Part shown: piece after piece, positions 11,798-43,103 of the stretch | Numbering within the stretch: the stretch's first letter is position 1 | Layout of the letters: every line of letters begins with the position of its first letter | Source: Promethearchaeota archaeon Loki_b32 | GTDB lineage: Archaea > Asgardarchaeota > Lokiarchaeia > Sigyniarchaeales > SOKP01 | DNA length: 64,000 nucleotides | Assembly: GCA_005223125.1 (NCBI GenBank) | Contig: NJBH01000003.1 | Span: 64,001-128,000 of the forward strand | Reading direction: 5' to 3' | Program-made: the position numbers and the translations under genes | Notes under the pieces: model-generated | What the model was told of the DNA's origin: nothing | The model's input: the letters and a program-made list of their open reading frames with translations, nothing else | The model's database searches: none

Positions 11798-11975
11798 ATA
11801 ATTTTTTTTTAATCTAATTATATTTACAATGGTAATTTGAAATTGCACAACATTAAAATCTAAACTTAGTTTATAAAACTTAGATTATCTATAGATGACT
11901 TACCATAGATAAACTACAATTAAGGAAAACAAAAGAATCTAACAATTAAATAGGAAAAATTAAAGGTGATAGGTT

Positions 11976-12257
11976 TTGCCTATAGGAGATGACTCGAAGG
12001 TTTATATCGGCAGAAAGAAAACAATGAATTATGTAATGGCTGCTATAGTTGTACTAAATGAAGAACCAGTTACTTTATTAGCTCGAGGCCGTTCCATTTC
12101 TCGAGCTGTAGATGTAGCAGAAATTCTAATGCACACATTCATCAAGGGTAGTAGCTACGGGGCTATAAATATAAGTACTGAGACCCTTACTAATACAGAT
12201 GGCACTAGTAGTAATGTCTCAGCTATTGAAATTGAAATCATTCCGCCAAAAAAGTAA
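11976..12257 (+). CDS. albA: DNA/RNA-binding protein Alba
   Basis: VYIGRKKTMNYV, LLARGRSISRAVDVAE, SNVSAIEI; SD AAGGTGA upstream of TTG. Confidence 0.95.
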   Translation: MPIGDDSKVYIGRKKTMNYVMAAIVVLNEEPVTLLARGRSISRAVDVAEILMHTFIKGSSYGAINISTETLTNTDGTSSNVSAIEIEIIPPKK

Positions 12258-12278
12258 TTAAGAAAATCTAAAATTCAG

Positions 12279-12326
12279 GAGAAAATCAGGAGACTTTCTC
12301 GTAACTTTTTTTTTATTTTATTTTTT
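12279..12326 (+). terminator. possible hairpin + T-tract terminator after alba
   Basis: GAGAAA-ATCAGGAGAC-TTTCTC stem followed by long T runs, between convergent genes. Confidence 0.35.
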
Positions 12327-12371
12327 AAACTATTTTAAAAAATCCTTGGTTTAAGAGAAAGCGTAAAATTG

Positions 12372-12671
12372 TTAAAGTGTACTTTTTAATAATTCTAATT
12401 TATTTTGGAAATTCTCAATTTCCGACTTTTTAAGATTATTTGTATTGATATTTCGAATAATACTTATGAAATTTTTAATTATAGGATGTTGGAGTACCAC
12501 ACACTTCTGATTCAAGGTATTTACATCTAAAATTAACGCGGAATCTAATTGCGCTCCCATTCCTAATACATCTTTAAAAATCAATTCATTATCGTCTGTA
12601 TATGATAAGATTAAAATATCTTCTGCTATCTGAGAACCATCGCTTTCATTTATTATTTTAAATTCACACAT
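12372..12671 (-). CDS. CooT-like nickel-binding protein with C-terminal extension
   Basis: MCEF start (ATG 12671 preferred over track start 12707), IAEDI, FKDVLG; divergent from cdhB/cdhC. Confidence 0.7.
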   Translation of the reverse strand: MCEFKIINESDGSQIAEDILILSYTDDNELIFKDVLGMGAQLDSALILDVNTLNQKCVVLQHPIIKNFISIIRNINTNNLKKSEIENFQNKLELLKSTL

Positions 12672-37451: not shown

Positions 37452-37811
37452 TTAAAAAAATGCATCCATCTTTTTAATTCCCTTTATTTCTTCATAAGTA
37501 ATACCTAGTGGATCTAAGACTTGCTCAAGAGCAGAAATAAGAAGGTCTCTATATTTTTTAATATCTATATCTTGGAGTTTAGCTAGTTCAAGTGCCCTTG
37601 CTCCAATGGATCCCTTACTCTTGATAAAACTTATTGTTTCACCATTTTGGAATTCTTTTCCAGTAGTATTTTTTAATTATAATGCAGCTTTTACATGTTG
37701 AGGAATAACTTTTGTGTAATTTTTAAGAGCCTTCTGTAAGCCAATGTTAATAGCATAATCTTCTAAAGTGAAAGTATTTGGTTTCCCTATCTTCTTTAGA
37801 TTATCTCTTAT
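37452..37811 (-). pseudogene. orphan second copy of the polB 3' end (120 codons, one internal TAA at 37677-37679)
   Basis: Translates IRDNLKKIGKPNTFTLEDYAI...IPQHVKAAL*LKNTTGKEFQ...SALEQVLDPLGITYEEIKGIKKMDAFF*; ungapped ~60% identity to the C-terminus of 40161..43103 by manual alignment. Confidence 0.92.
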
Positions 37812-37821
37812 AAAATAAAAT

Positions 37822-38832
37822 TTAATTTTTTTCAATAAAATCTAATAATGTTGGAGTTCTTTTTAATTCATAAATTTCTTCAATAAATCTTTTCAAATGA
37901 TTAACTAAATTTTTATATTTTATGATATAATTTCCTTGTTCTTCATTGTTAATTGCATAATTTAATTTTACAAACATTTCCATCGCGTCAATTACCCAAC
38001 TTCTTTTTGGAGCTACAAATTGCCTTTCATCATTCGCATGATAGTCCGAGAATTGAGTTCTTAGCCTTTCTGTTAAGTCATCGATATTCACTCGTATCTC
38101 GATTATTTTAATCCCTTTAGATTCCATAAATTCTTCCATTTGTGGATATTGATTAAAAATTCTCGTCCATAAAATTTCCATAGTATATGCAACATTCGGT
38201 TTTACATCATAAAACTTTATTGGATAACGAGGTATTACCTTATTTAATGGAACAAATACAATTGTGCGAAATTTTTCATCTAGATTAACGTCTGTCAAAT
38301 TTCCATATCCTTTTTCTAATGCTAAAGCATAATTGACACCGTAATCTCTATGAAAAGCAATTACAGCAAAATTTTTATTAAAAATCAGCTCCTTTTTCTG
38401 AGATAGATAATCACTTACATGAACTTTCATTCTATAGTGCGTCAAAAGTATGATATCAAAATTATCAATTAATTCATTCTCTGTTTTCCATCCTTTAAGA
38501 TCATCATCATATTTTTGTAATTGTTCAAAATCGTCTTTCCAATGTTCTCTATTTCTGGGAAATGATATTTTTGCTTCACTTAAAATACCATACTCTTCAT
38601 TTAATTGAAGAACCAAATCAGGTATAATTGTATTTTCAGGATTTATACGATTTACCTTTGAGGTATCCATCCTTCGGGCAATAAAACTATACGTATTAGA
38701 TTTGAAATCCATATTCTCATCATCCCATCTTATTACATGAGAAAAACAAATAATTGCTTCTAATGTTTGTTTATAATTATCTATATTCTCTAAGATTTTT
38801 TTAATTCCTCTATTAATTTTGTCTTCTGGCAT
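37822..38832 (-). CDS. putative PD-(D/E)xK nuclease with wHTH-like C-terminus and PIP-like tail
   Basis: IPDLVLQ...ILSEAKIS...EQLQKYD; ends TPTLLDFIEKN. Confidence 0.7.
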   Translation of the reverse strand: MPEDKINRGIKKILENIDNYKQTLEAIICFSHVIRWDDENMDFKSNTYSFIARRMDTSKVNRINPENTIIPDLVLQLNEEYGILSEAKISFPRNREHWKDDFEQLQKYDDDLKGWKTENELIDNFDIILLTHYRMKVHVSDYLSQKKELIFNKNFAVIAFHRDYGVNYALALEKGYGNLTDVNLDEKFRTIVFVPLNKVIPRYPIKFYDVKPNVAYTMEILWTRIFNQYPQMEEFMESKGIKIIEIRVNIDDLTERLRTQFSDYHANDERQFVAPKRSWVIDAMEMFVKLNYAINNEEQGNYIIKYKNLVNHLKRFIEEIYELKRTPTLLDFIEKN

Positions 38833-38833
38833 T

Positions 38834-39955
38834 TTAAGAATAAAAGTCTTTAATAATTCCTTCTCGAAACCAAATAAATATAAAATTACATAATCTTACT
38901 AATGATGCATAAGTAGATCTCATTTGTGGAACAATTGTTATTTTATTATCAGAAAGAATCCAAATATCATAGGAAGAACCATCTCTAAAATCATTGAAAG
39001 AACAATGTAGATATGGATTTAGGTGATAAATAGAAAGAGATGAATATGTGATTTTTTGGAGTGCTTCAATTAATTTCTTATTTTGTTTTTTATCTTTAAA
39101 AACATCAATATTATATTTAATAACGACTGGTTTAGTTTTCAGATTTTCTTCTTTTGTACGTTCTCTATTGTCTAAGATTTTTATATCCGAAGTTACTTTT
39201 GAAATGATATCTCTGACTATATTATTATAAAAAAATCCAAACATTTTATTGCATCTAAAAAATGCATAACGAGAAATTTTACATTTCACATCACTATATA
39301 TATATTTCTTTCTATCATCTTCAAAAGGTTTAATCAAAGTAAATTCAATATAATTAATCCATTCATCATTTTCTCTAGCTTCTTGAAATAATTCTTCGAA
39401 AGGACGATCTGTAAACTTCACTTCTATCTCAAATTCTCGCCTAGCATATTCTTGGACAATTCTGGCTTGTTTTGATAAATGTCGTACTTGTATTTTGGAG
39501 TTTTCTAGTTTTTTCTCTAAATGATGCAGAATTTTTTCCAAATAATTCGAATCTAAAAAAAATCTAGAGATTTTAGGGTAAAATTTATCAAAAAAACTTA
39601 TTATATCATAATGAAAATTTCTATATTTTTCATGAGTGATAAGAATATAAATATTGGGTGTTTTATGTTTAAAAAGGATAAATCTACTAATTCTTGCTTT
39701 CTTACTACCTCTAATTATTTTTGTTAAATTAAATGAATAAATATTCTCTCCCAATTCCTTCTTTTTATATGTAAAATTTTTTAGATTTAAAGTTTCTAAG
39801 ATCTCAAAAATATCAAATTTTGAAGTCAGTATAAGAGTATAAAATTCTTCTCCTATATTTGATAAAATAGATGTTATAGTCTGAATTATTGAATTAATAT
39901 CTTTCTTTTCAATATCATAAAGCCAAGAAAGTGGATCTTCTCTTTTTTTTAACAT
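38834..39955 (-). CDS. uncharacterised 373-aa protein, operon partner of the nuclease
   Basis: Stop 1 nt from nuclease ATG; motif-like C-terminus HLNPYLHCSFNDFRDGSSYDIWIL...IVPQ...SLVRL...FREG. Confidence 0.75.
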   Translation of the reverse strand: MLKKREDPLSWLYDIEKKDINSIIQTITSILSNIGEEFYTLILTSKFDIFEILETLNLKNFTYKKKELGENIYSFNLTKIIRGSKKARISRFILFKHKTPNIYILITHEKYRNFHYDIISFFDKFYPKISRFFLDSNYLEKILHHLEKKLENSKIQVRHLSKQARIVQEYARREFEIEVKFTDRPFEELFQEARENDEWINYIEFTLIKPFEDDRKKYIYSDVKCKISRYAFFRCNKMFGFFYNNIVRDIISKVTSDIKILDNRERTKEENLKTKPVVIKYNIDVFKDKKQNKKLIEALQKITYSSLSIYHLNPYLHCSFNDFRDGSSYDIWILSDNKITIVPQMRSTYASLVRLCNFIFIWFREGIIKDFYS

Positions 39956-40160
39956 TATTTACTATCTATAATAATTAGAATCAAAATATAAATTTTAATT
40001 TAAAGTCAATATTTATTATTTTTTTCATATTACTCCAAACTTAAATAAATATCTAGACTATTAGAGTTCTCTCATTTTTTAATGTATATTTGTCTTTACA
40101 CATTCTTATGATATTTAACTTGGATTTATTTAAATCTTTAATGATTATTTAAAAAATGAA

Positions 40161-43103
40161 TTAAAAAAGTGTTTTTTGAACACTTGGTTCTGCTTCTTCT
40201 TTCTTTTTATACTCTTTTAAAGTAATTTCTTCATATTCAATACCTAAAGCATCAAACAACTGCTCTAATGCTGATTTCAATAAATTTCTATATTTTTTAA
40301 CATTTAAATCTCTAAAACTAGCCAGATCAAAATCTTTAGCTCCAATACTGTCATTGCTTTTGATAAATTTAATATCATCACCTTTTTGATATTCCTTCCC
40401 TGTTATTTTTTTTAGTTCGTTAGCAGCTCTGACATGTTGCGGTATTGTTTTCTCATAAGATTTAAGAGATTTTTGTAATGTTATATAAATTGCATAGTCT
40501 TCTAAAGGAAATTCATCTTCCTTACCTATTTTTTTTCTATTAGCCTTTATAATTTCGATTATAGATTTTCGGGCTTTTAAAAAATCATCATCTGATTTTA
40601 CATTTTTTAATATATCAATTACTTGTCGAAATACTTTCTTAATAAATTCAGGTGTATTTTTTTTTTTAGCTAAGACTCCTTTCATATCAATGTATTTAGT
40701 ATTTTTATAGATACCAACATAATTTTTCTTTCTTTTAGATAATGCTAGAAATTGATAAGTTTTTTCCTCCTCCAAATCAAGATCTAGTTCATTTTTACTC
40801 CATTCAGATAATTGTCTCATTTGATCTTTTGTTGGATTTCTAAGAAAGACAGAATCTGTATCACCATATAATACTTCTATTCCTAATTCTTCTGATTTTT
40901 TAATTGTCTGTTTAATGGAATATTGTCCTATTGAAGTTGTACTTTCAGCCACCGGAAGGCAAAAAAGAGGAAAATTCTTAGATCCAAAAACACCATATGA
41001 ACCATTAATAAAAACTTTAAGAGCTTGTTGAATCGTTTGATAATAACTTCTTTGTTTTTCTGTTAAATTTTTATCACCAGATTTAGGTTTAAAATATTTT
41101 ACTCTTATATCTCGGAAAAAGCCTACGACATATGCAAAGATTCCCATTTTTTGAGTACATATATAGTAGGGGGTTCCTTTTACAAGATTATCTTCATCAT
41201 CCTTATGTGGACACAAAACTGTTTCATATGATAAATTATATTCCTTGATAATGGAAGGATATAGGCTAGCAAAATCCATAACAACGACATCGAAATGAAT
41301 ACCAGGAACAGGTGGAACAACATATGCCCCAGCAAATGTTTTTCCTTCGATAACAGCTTTTGAATATCCTCCTGTTTTTAATTCTGCAATTTCAGATCTA
41401 CGAGGTATAAGATATTTGTTTCTCCTGTGTTCAAAATAAAAAATATTCTGAATCCATGTAGATATTTGGCGCCTTACAGTTTCATGAATAGGCATTTTAG
41501 TAATTCGGCATAATAATAAAATTAAATTCCATACTAATGAATTATTAAATTTAGTTAATTCTAATGTAAGTATTGAATCTTTTAGATTATACCATGTAAG
41601 TATATCATATTCCATTTCGTGTATTTCTTCTTCATGTTCATATTTTTTTTCTCCCAATAGCGCTTCACTTATTGCGTTTAATGAACTGCTTTCATATGCT
41701 CCACCAAATGCATATCCAGAAATACTTCTATTAAAGAAGAAATTAAAGAGATCAATATGGATTCCTTTTCTTAGATCACAGTCAGATCTTGATAGAAAAC
41801 CAAAGCCTCTCTTAACATGGATGGGATTTAAATCTTTATTTATTTTTAACTTATTTGCTCTATGAAACATATAATTTAAGTCAAAATTATCACCATTGAA
41901 TGTGATAATTACAGGATATTCCCATAAAAGACGAAAGGATTCTGTCAATAATTCCTTTTCGCTTTTAAAGAATATAACTTCTGCATCAGATGGAAATTTT
42001 TTATGAAGTCCACGAAAAGCAAATCCTTCTCGTTCTAGTACATAAACTAATTTTAGTCCATCCGAAGCCACAAATGATATACTGATAATTGCTTGTTTTG
42101 CCTGACGAGGATCTGGAATAACAAAATCTTCTGATCCTATACTTACTTCGATATCCATAGCTAACCGTTTCACATCTGGAATCGGAGTGAGAAATATATC
42201 TAAAAACTTTTCCGAAAATTCTTGGATTTCTGGAGATTCATTTTTAAATAGAGCGCGCAATTCTTTTGCCATTCTCTTTGATTCTTCTGAAACCTCTTCA
42301 AAACTTAACTTTTTGATTTGACCACCCTGAATACTATAAATTAATCCAGGAATTAGTTGTCTATCGAAAATATAGTTTAAGTGATATCTAATGTCTGCTT
42401 CCCAAGCTTTTTTATTATTTTTACTTAAAATATTTCTGATATTTGTACCAGAACCTCCAATATCCGAAGGAGTTTTACCATATATTTTTGTCATCGATAT
42501 TTTTTTATCTTTTAGTAGATCTATTTTCTCTATTTCTTCAAATCTAGTAAAACCTTCATATTCTGTTAATTCTATCATATTTTGTAAATCTGTTAGCGTT
42601 TCCTTACTTAAACAATAAGGTTCATGGTCGGTTGTATCAATCCAAATCTTTATATCATCGGTTTCCAAATCATAAAATTTACAGTATGCTTTATTTTGTC
42701 CACCATCATAGTTAACATCAAGCAATATTCCTCGTTCCATATCTTCAACGATTTCTCCTTTTTCAATAAGGTATCGAATATATGTTGAAGAAACATTTTC
42801 TCGTAAAACCTTGGTTAATCTGATATTTCCTTCTTTTAAGCCAAAAAGTTCATTATTTCCTTTAAAAAATAAATTTGAAGGTATTTCTTTTGTAATTTTC
42901 TCTGCTTTTGGAGTTGGTTCTTTAGTTTTCTCTTCTTTTATAATTTTTGGCTTAGCTTTAGGTTTTTCTTCTTTATATTTTTCAGTCTTTACTACTTTTG
43001 GTGTTTCTGGGGATTTTACTTTTTTCTGCTCTTTATCGCTAACAAAGGAAAAAAGCGAGGTTTGTTCCTTATCATTTAGTTTTTTCTTTTTTGGAGGTGG
43101 CAT
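40161..43103 (-). CDS. polB: family B DNA polymerase (PolB1-like)
   Basis: Exo DIEV, FNGDNFD; pol DFASLYPSII, KVFINGSYG, YGDTDS, KKNY; N-terminal DVNYDG...DTTDHEPYCL as in B1 group. Confidence 0.97.
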   Translation of the reverse strand: MPPPKKKKLNDKEQTSLFSFVSDKEQKKVKSPETPKVVKTEKYKEEKPKAKPKIIKEEKTKEPTPKAEKITKEIPSNLFFKGNNELFGLKEGNIRLTKVLRENVSSTYIRYLIEKGEIVEDMERGILLDVNYDGGQNKAYCKFYDLETDDIKIWIDTTDHEPYCLSKETLTDLQNMIELTEYEGFTRFEEIEKIDLLKDKKISMTKIYGKTPSDIGGSGTNIRNILSKNNKKAWEADIRYHLNYIFDRQLIPGLIYSIQGGQIKKLSFEEVSEESKRMAKELRALFKNESPEIQEFSEKFLDIFLTPIPDVKRLAMDIEVSIGSEDFVIPDPRQAKQAIISISFVASDGLKLVYVLEREGFAFRGLHKKFPSDAEVIFFKSEKELLTESFRLLWEYPVIITFNGDNFDLNYMFHRANKLKINKDLNPIHVKRGFGFLSRSDCDLRKGIHIDLFNFFFNRSISGYAFGGAYESSSLNAISEALLGEKKYEHEEEIHEMEYDILTWYNLKDSILTLELTKFNNSLVWNLILLLCRITKMPIHETVRRQISTWIQNIFYFEHRRNKYLIPRRSEIAELKTGGYSKAVIEGKTFAGAYVVPPVPGIHFDVVVMDFASLYPSIIKEYNLSYETVLCPHKDDEDNLVKGTPYYICTQKMGIFAYVVGFFRDIRVKYFKPKSGDKNLTEKQRSYYQTIQQALKVFINGSYGVFGSKNFPLFCLPVAESTTSIGQYSIKQTIKKSEELGIEVLYGDTDSVFLRNPTKDQMRQLSEWSKNELDLDLEEEKTYQFLALSKRKKNYVGIYKNTKYIDMKGVLAKKKNTPEFIKKVFRQVIDILKNVKSDDDFLKARKSIIEIIKANRKKIGKEDEFPLEDYAIYITLQKSLKSYEKTIPQHVRAANELKKITGKEYQKGDDIKFIKSNDSIGAKDFDLASFRDLNVKKYRNLLKSALEQLFDALGIEYEEITLKEYKKKEEAEPSVQKTLF

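Follow-up and report, generated by a model that had tools for sequence, protein, structure and literature searches.

The 64,000-nucleotide stretch of the genome of Promethearchaeota archaeon Loki_b32 analysed here (hereafter the window) carries on its minus strand a module of two genes, each defined by its open reading frame (ORF) and translation: an upstream gene for a 373-residue partner protein, P0002 (38834..39955), and a downstream gene for a 336-residue protein, P0001 (37822..38832), with a PD-(D/E)xK nuclease domain, a winged helix and a tail that bears a sliding-clamp motif. We found that the two genes form one unit with near-obligate pairing, that the unit is sporadically distributed across archaea and bacteria, and that the nuclease ends in what is very probably a clamp-binding peptide, the form of which tracks the domain of the host. 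An earlier sequence-only reading of this DNA, which had proposed a clamp-recruited nuclease acting with a partner, is thereby supported in its core, and the defence role that it envisaged is plausible but unproven. Taken as a whole, the picture of a clamp-tethered nuclease-partner complex serving as a conflict (defence or abortive-infection) module seems to us somewhat better than an even proposition.

Pairing was assessed in two sets of loci, one obtained by scanning one genome per species with the nuclease profile (36 loci) and the other from metagenome contigs anchored on the partner (59 loci). A P0002 homologue lay immediately upstream of the nuclease gene on the same strand at 34 of the 35 testable genome loci, the 36th locus (L026) being cut by a contig end and so left out of this count, and the nuclease gene lay directly downstream of the partner at 46 of the 48 metagenome loci with enough downstream sequence. 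A Halosegnis marinus plasmid likewise carries the pair. At most junctions the two genes overlap by 4-17 nucleotides or lie no more than 3 nucleotides apart. In the window they are separated by 1 nucleotide and co-oriented with polB, a gene for a family-B DNA polymerase of 980 amino acids (40161..43103, minus strand; Pfam DNA_pol_B, 2e-47), just as the sequence-only reading had described them. The sole locus with a nuclease lacking a partner (L018, 293-3160) has an opposite-strand ORF of 602 amino acids upstream, and the nuclease ORF there is extended to 412 amino acids. An all-against-all BLAST comparison of 379 flanking proteins revealed no third conserved gene, and no fused form of P0002 was found among longer proteins, the latter being weak evidence.

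The catalytic residues of P0001 are retained across its family. The core P71-D72, followed after 13 residues by E86-A87-K88 (38569..38622, minus strand), is invariant or nearly so in the family alignment: among 163 members, P71 and D72 are found in all, E86 in 159 (the other four having D) and K88 in 157. Further along lies Q104-L-Q-K-Y108 (38509..38523, minus strand), a motif IV of the RecB/Cas4 type, with Q104 in 147 and Y108 in all 163 members. QxxxY is the mark of RecB-like nucleases and D...ExK...QxxxY the RecB/Cas4-type pattern, so the family is almost certainly catalytically active. Both elements, which had been picked out from the window alone as PD-x13-EAK and QLxxY, proved to be conserved far beyond chance. 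A profile search of 1.84 billion representatives retrieved 638 clusters at E ≤ 1e-3, of which 316 reached E ≤ 1e-30.

The predicted structure agrees with these motifs. An AlphaFold2 model of P0001 built with 22 homologues had a predicted local distance difference test score (pLDDT) of 86.6, and comparison with solved structures identified residues 16-190, which contain the invariant catalytic residues, as a restriction-endonuclease-like alpha/beta core, the PD-(D/E)xK fold that the earlier reading had called for. The best match of this domain was AF2093 (2ph7; Z 9.3, root-mean-square deviation (rmsd) 2.9, 121 aligned residues), followed by an XisH-like protein (2okf, Z 8.0), AF1548 (1y88, Z 7.4) and 8em1 (Z 7.0), with PaqCI, Can2, NotI, NucS, Bax1 and SfsA among further fold matches. 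Residues ~210-320 (37873..38205, minus strand) gave many winged-helix matches at Z 6.0-6.6, such as Rv0047c, the winged helix of Vps25 and Z-alpha domains, which bears out the winged-helix-like C-terminal region suspected before. A search of PDB sequences with the P0001 profile found no sequence relative. Judged by its motifs and modelled fold, P0001 is a RecB/Cas4-type PD-(D/E)xK nuclease.

The partner, too, was modelled, and with very high confidence (AlphaFold2 pLDDT 90.7; 35 homologues in a word-indexed search). Its residues 35-258 (39182..39853, minus strand) resemble a double TBP-like module of the kind seen in Iml3/CENP-L and RdgC, with Foldseek matches to RdgC (2owl; E 9e-5, probability 1.0, template-modelling (TM) score 0.29-0.34) and Iml3 (4je3; E 1.5e-4), and VIA-align matches to Iml3 (Z 8.5, 176 aligned, rmsd 6.5), CENP-L (Z 7.8) and RdgC (Z 5.9). 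Residues 260-373 (38837..39178, minus strand) form a KA1/TBP-like domain, matched by VIA-align to the KA1 domains of SAD-B (Z 9.7, 87 aligned, rmsd 2.2), Chk1 (Z 8.2) and METTL16 (Z 7.9) and to the NRD of RnlA (Z 6.8). This last domain contains invariant HxNPY, DxxDGSS, W, PQ and EG elements. The invariant columns of the family are H311, N313, P314, D322, D325, S327, W332, P343, Q344, E365 and G366, and the polar residues counted among them (H311, N313, D322, D325, S327, W332, Q344 and E365) all fall within it. They coincide with the block NPYLH..DGSSYDIW..IVPQ..FREG, which the sequence-only reading had singled out as motif-like and could not assign to a family. Folds of these kinds, as modelled, usually serve to bind nucleic acids or proteins and not to catalyse reactions.

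Several other assignments for these proteins were considered and set aside. The P0002 profile showed no sequence similarity to any solved structure in the PDB. Library matches of the two proteins to PipA, Lebercilin, a beta-lactamase model and a neck protein were at noise level and were dismissed. Foldseek matches of P0002 to beta clamps and PCNA, which might have suggested a clamp mimic, had a probability of ~0.1 and a TM score of ~0.1 and are artefacts of repeated alpha/beta domains. The P0002 C-terminus, EGIIKDFYS, was also rejected as a PCNA-interacting peptide (PIP), being a beta-strand of the fold that is conserved alike in bacteria and archaea.

The feature that sets the nuclease apart is its C-terminal tail. 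P0001 ends in TPTLLDFIEKN (37825..37857, minus strand), as previously noted, and by the consensus of its clade and the model this is a PIP-like motif: T-P-T-L-L-D-F-I has the h-x-x-aromatic-hydrophobic spacing of a PIP (here h-x-x-F-I) and stops three residues short of the C-terminus, in a tail of low model confidence. The last ~20 residues of the nucleases are unalignable, and the last two blocks of the model have pLDDT values of 66 and then 49. The tail consensus of the window's clade is K-T-L-[DN]-x-F-[IL], with full Q-bearing versions in QKTMNNFI and QKIINDFL. Other archaeal tails read QKTLEKW (Methanoregulaceae), QRSLTDF (Nanoarchaeia), QLTLENIL (Aenigmatarchaeota) and KNALDKYI (Nitrosopumilaceae), and those of metagenomic relatives include QSTLEGF, QATIDAF, TLDRFF, QTLEKYF and TLDEFI. 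Bacterial tails carry QLTLF, QLPLF, QLTFF, QATLF, QMPLF, QRKLF, QPKLF or QLPLL, or the hexamers QPSLPF and QRHLEF.

We quantified these motifs in the last 25 residues of the 163 family members, using composition-preserving shuffles, the C-termini of neighbouring proteins and internal 25-mers as controls. The strict pattern Q[LMIVA].[LMI]F occurred in 37 of 163 tails as against 0.4 in shuffles (maximum 3), a ~90-fold excess, and was absent from all 275 C-termini of neighbouring proteins and from all 2010 25-mers taken from the interior of the family members. The looser pattern Q..[LMFIY][FLY] was present in 66 tails (7.1 expected), and the PIP pattern Q..[LIMV]..[FWY] in 18 (2.6 expected). Position by position, the consensus of the motif is Q-L-x-L-F, usually 0-10 residues from the end; the canonical beta-clamp-binding pentapeptide, which Dalrymple and colleagues are said to have described in 2001, is QL[SD]LF.

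Which motif a tail carries follows the domain of its host. Labelled archaeal lineages comprised 7 PIP-type and 0 beta-type tails and labelled bacterial lineages 0 PIP-type and 16 beta-type, with a Fisher value of 4e-6 that overstates independence, as motif type and host domain both largely follow the gene tree, with ~2 switches. The 16 are drawn from 23 labelled bacterial loci and have QLxLF or a Q-x-x-L-x-F variant. In a tree of 190 sequences, all labelled archaeal tips fell into two separate PIP-type clades. The first is basal and holds L006, L016, L033 and L035; the second (28 rows, support 99), to which the window, L002 and L003 belong, lies inside a larger supported clade that also has beta-type rows, labelled bacterial tips among them. 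For every labelled tip, clade type and host agree. Since the conserved C-terminal domain of the partner is alike in archaea and bacteria, the switching tail points away from the partner and towards a host factor, best explained as the sliding clamp. A motif that changes with the clamp type of the host is the pattern expected of a clamp-recruited protein. The PIP-like tail noted in the window is a conserved form, confined to archaea among the labelled lineages, with QLxLF as its bacterial counterpart.

One could instead suppose that the tails do not bind clamps at all and are short hydrophobic peptides serving contacts within a complex, or degradation signals, the enzyme being no more than an orphan nuclease of the restriction type that has an accessory protein. 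The absence of Q from the window motif and the sizeable share of tails without a recognisable motif are in keeping with this. Against it stand the textbook form of the bacterial consensus and its enrichment over shuffles, the PIP spacing of the archaeal form together with its resemblance to the FEN1 and PolB termini of its own genome, and the way in which motif type follows the host domain while the conserved domain of the partner stays unchanged. We regard this alternative as very improbable, and the nuclease tail, on the strength of these comparisons, as very probably a clamp-binding peptide.

On the Halosegnis plasmid (L052, NZ_CP119803.1, 5841-8023), the nuclease tail is degenerate and the partner has an added tail ending in QTMADFFPT, a canonical PIP. 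This single case fits two proteins acting as one clamp-bound complex. The genome of the window has one PCNA gene. Its FEN1 (C4:54018-55106) ends in QVSLDDFIK, which, with QTSLFSFV at the N-terminus of polB, represents the full PIPs on replication proteins of this archaeon. A FEN1 paralogue (C33:2706-3800) ends in QLTLY and the active polB in QKTLF, and this short terminal Q-x-T-L-[FY] form resembles the bacterial clamp motif more. Other PIP-bearing proteins of the same genome (RFC, RNase HII, ligase) added nothing useful. The RNase HII match (C46:9945-10574) has an in-frame TAA, and the DNA-ligase C-terminal domain PF04679 had no match in the genome, which is 95.5% complete.

Together, these features suggest how a self-contained, horizontally mobile two-gene module might operate. 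P0001 would be an active endonuclease whose winged helix binds DNA and whose flexible tail docks on the host's sliding clamp, PCNA in this Asgard archaeon and the beta clamp where the carrier is a bacterium. P0002, a protein of three TBP-like domains whose gene shares one message with that of the nuclease, mostly with an overlap, would be its obligate partner; within a hetero-oligomer it would most likely sense DNA structure or act as a gatekeeper. The clamp would tether, and perhaps activate, the nuclease on clamp-loaded, that is replicating, DNA. The most likely role would then be that of a conflict system, either of defence or of abortive infection, whose target is invader DNA in replication or, after a trigger, the host's own DNA.

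We next examined how the module came to lie beside polB. Directly downstream of the P0001 stop is an orphan native polB tail (37452..37811, minus strand), equivalent to residues 852-960 of the polymerase and 62% identical to them, with an in-frame TAA and the ending IKKMDAFF; it marks the downstream edge of an insertion. The 3' end now fused to polB (residues ~852-980; 40161..40550, minus strand) is foreign, with 61-65% identity to the tails of genus relatives, as compared with 77-87% for the orphan tail and 80-92% for the polB body. In five module-less genus relatives, polB runs straight into a native-type tail and then a zinc-ribbon gene, and the polB tails of genus relatives all end in IKKMDAFF, likewise without Q. 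Because the polB body and the orphan tail match the relatives, the fused tail has diverged and the relatives are contiguous, these comparisons identify a segment of ~2.7 kb as having been inserted here, made up of the foreign polB 3' end, a 205-nucleotide spacer between the polB stop and the P0002 start (39956..40160, minus strand) and the two genes. Recombination within polB is the simplest route, and the spacer, which lies within the imported segment, presumably holds the promoter of the module. As an unusual side effect on an essential gene, the replicative PolB has lost its native PIP terminus and now ends in QKTLF.

The same polB-module layout was found in only one congener (L001/L041, G225). 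No polB gene lay beside the pair at any of the 34 other genome loci or the 59 metagenome loci, and we rejected polB adjacency as a part of the system. The sequence-only reading was right in calling the cassette cargo, as the module is inserted in polB; its placement right behind the polymerase holds in this lineage, where it reflects an insertion with a foreign polB 3' end, and does not hold elsewhere (2 of ~96 loci). The link to the replisome is the clamp motif, not the gene order. The insertion is surrounded by ordinary chromosomal genes, for NAPRTase, a radical-SAM enzyme, an SDR and an M42 peptidase, and the G+C content of the window is ~29%. As stated earlier for the cassette, no methyltransferase gene is present in it, nor in the immediate window flanks, and ARAGORN called no tRNA in window positions 1-64000.

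An insertion of this kind also invites the thought of a selfish addiction or homing-type element, in which the nuclease would be a toxin held in check by the partner, or a break-maker that spreads the cassette, and the clamp would target replicating DNA as with TnsE of Tn7. Clamp-targeted transposition is known, the operon is tight and translationally coupled, and the cassette sits inside essential polB with a surrogate 3' end, such that simple deletion would damage polB. A haloarchaeal plasmid carries a copy, related Pfam 38 families take their names from genes of a M. jannaschii extrachromosomal element, and IS110 and IS5 elements lie near some loci. Typical antitoxins, on the other hand, are smaller and less conserved than the partner, in which no DNA-binding repressor domain is obvious; the pair is not accompanied by terminal repeats, an integrase or a transposase; and the homologous foreign sequence at polB fits recombination better than site-specific homing. 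We consider such an element decidedly unlikely.

The distribution of the module is sporadic. In the scan of one genome per species it was scattered over more than 12 phyla, with archaeal loci in Promethearchaeota, Methanoregulaceae, Nanoarchaeia, Aenigmatarchaeota, Nitrosopumilaceae and Methanosarcinales, and bacterial loci in, among others, Acidobacteriota, Chloroflexota, Planctomycetota, Verrucomicrobiota, Aminicenantes, Thermodesulfobacteriota and Hydrogenedentota. It was present in 5 of 400 genomes of the window's phylum and in 1 of 53 other species of its genus, and in none of 400 further genomes in the phylum of L003, beyond L003 itself. Internal stops or frameshifts were observed in several copies (L010/L011, L030, L031, L034 and L036). 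A search of IMG/VR returned only 2 matches in 2.9 million viral contigs, indicating that the module is cellular rather than viral, and a phage record collection yielded no match. Such a distribution fits an accessory module that is costly and has spread horizontally, not a core replication or repair gene.

Two cases raised particular points. L010 and L011 have the same flanks and a pair with an identical internal nuclease stop, on two contigs of ~8.7 kb from the same study that were binned into metagenome-assembled genomes of two phyla (Limisphaerales and Gemmataceae), which points to a binning artefact or a very recent transfer. In L033 (Nitrosopumilaceae), a second partial match to the partner family (11938-12393, E 9e-19) lies ~1 kb downstream of the nuclease and may be the remnant of a second module.

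The same distribution bears on whether P0001 is instead a replication-coupled repair or genome-maintenance nuclease, comparable to NucS/EndoMS or clamp-activated MutL, that was acquired horizontally with a DNA-binding accessory subunit and has no part in conflict. C-terminal clamp motifs, PIP in archaea and beta-type in bacteria, are a hallmark of NucS and other repair nucleases, NucS is among the structural matches of P0001, and RdgC, the closest solved fold of the N-terminal part of P0002, is a ring-shaped DNA binder associated with recombination. Housekeeping genes are numerous in the flanks, and in the window the module adjoins polB. That adjacency, however, stems from a single insertion, and the module is found in at most ~1% of the genomes searched, even within one genus, is scattered over unrelated phyla and includes several pseudogenised copies. 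Its plasmid copy lies beside methylase, HNH and insertion-sequence genes, and P0001 has neither the N-terminal domain of NucS nor a Pfam match to it. We judge a pure maintenance role unlikely.

We then asked what surrounds the pair, surveying 145 proteins encoded within 3 kb of it at 33 loci. Recurrent neighbours were helicases (DEAD, SNF2 and ResIII), N6 and N4 methylases, IS110 transposases and MrfA-type zinc-binding helicases. PADLOC recognised type I restriction-endonuclease-like proteins, DarT/DarG, DrmB, HmaC/DUF499 and an SngC/BrxH-like helicase among the neighbours, and methyltransferases accounted for 2-3 of the 145 proteins. Around the pair on the Halosegnis plasmid are DUF1156 methylase genes, a gene for an HNH endonuclease and IS5. 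This association with defence genes is suggestive but moderate. In PADLOC-DB 2.0.0 itself, P0001 had no match, and the only match of P0002, to BrxF (E 0.0013, 16.6 bits, 78 residues), was dismissed as noise. A search of the literature for clamp-motif defence nucleases returned nothing relevant.

A number of observations weigh against a clamp-tethered conflict module. Most of the 145 neighbours are singletons of housekeeping families, and neither P0001 nor P0002 has a supporting family match in Pfam, NCBIfam, PADLOC or PHROGs. The window tail has T, not the canonical Q, at PIP position 1, and ~30-45% of tails match none of the regular expressions used. The dependence of motif type on the gene tree, described above, counts on the same side. 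Repair nucleases, moreover, typically have clamp-binding motifs, as do some transposition proteins, and the motif by itself therefore does not indicate defence.

Clamp-binding peptides are known from vertically inherited replication and repair enzymes. Here the same trick would be used by a rare mobile two-gene nuclease module, represented by hundreds of sequence clusters and as yet without a described function. That the motif switches between host domains amounts to a natural experiment that argues for clamp recruitment, and it shows how little must change for such a module to work after transfer between domains. Should the module be a defence system, DNA carrying a loaded host clamp would join the cues and platforms of prokaryotic immunity, and it would become clear how replicating invaders can be targeted by a nuclease that has no methylase. 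A bolder form of this proposal is that the module is the first recognised immune or abortive-infection system built on a sliding-clamp platform, with a tail of ~5-8 residues rewritten at each domain crossing (QLxLF to (Q)xTLxxF[IL] or the reverse) and an attack directed at DNA replicated by the hijacked host replisome; we advance it tentatively, our own expectation leaning the other way.

The closest mechanistic precedents are NucS/EndoMS and GAPS4. NucS/EndoMS, a mismatch endonuclease of archaea and actinobacteria, carries its DNA-binding domain at the N-terminus and works as a homodimer; its gene has no partner and is inherited like other housekeeping genes. Like P0001, it joins a RecB-like PD-(D/E)xK domain to a C-terminal clamp peptide, of the PIP type in archaea and the beta type in bacteria. 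The structural match of NucS (2vld) to the P0001 nuclease domain (Z 6.2, 104 aligned) covers the generic nuclease core only, and P0001 had no Pfam match to NucS families at E ≤ 1. P0001 differs from NucS in its C-terminal winged helix, its obligate upstream partner and its rare, patchy and mobile distribution.

GAPS4 is an anti-phage system that needs both of its genes, for the PD-(D/E)xK nuclease GAPS4a, with a non-canonical HGxD-SxK motif, and the larger GAPS4b, on which the nuclease docks and which is predicted to form a ring in a 2:2 complex; the system is reported to sense DNA damage and degrade DNA (PMC13748975). The module resembles it in consisting of two genes, for a PD-(D/E)xK nuclease and a larger partner. 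It differs in gene order, the nuclease being encoded second, in the canonical PD-ExK-QxxxY motifs of P0001 and in its clamp motif, none being reported for GAPS4. Clusters of GAPS4b_N are weak structural neighbours of P0002 in the ESM Atlas, with TM scores of 0.41-0.44 that lie below 0.5 and are a lead only, and sequence similarity to GAPS4 was not detectable.

More convincingly, P0001 adjoins clusters of MJECL32 (PF27326) in the ESM Atlas (feature score 0.94; TM 0.60/0.63), and P0002 adjoins clusters of MJECL33 (PF25924) and AF_0896_M (PF27341) (0.94-0.95; TM 0.72-0.84). From their names we take MJECL32 and MJECL33, both Pfam 38.1 families, to be neighbouring genes of a M. jannaschii extrachromosomal element. 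The pair as such seems, then, to have been catalogued already as Pfam 38.1 families, and our literature search found no paper on MJECL32, MJECL33 or AF_0896, nor did the sources searched record a function of these families or a connection with the clamp.

In its TBP-like repeat domains P0002 is like RdgC, Iml3/CENP-L and RnlA, at low TM scores (0.2-0.34); RdgC is a recombination-associated dimer that encircles DNA, and RnlA, an anti-phage toxin, is composed of domains of this kind. P0001 shares its fold with type II and type IV restriction endonucleases and orphan PD-(D/E)xK nucleases (AF2093, AF1548, the XisH-like protein, PaqCI and NotI). Unlike restriction-modification systems, the module lacks a linked methyltransferase; its nuclease bears a clamp motif and comes with an obligate partner that is not an enzyme. 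The novelty lies neither in the nuclease fold nor in the format of two genes, but in a module that is mobile, crosses domains and has what appears to be a clamp-docking peptide rewritten for each host.

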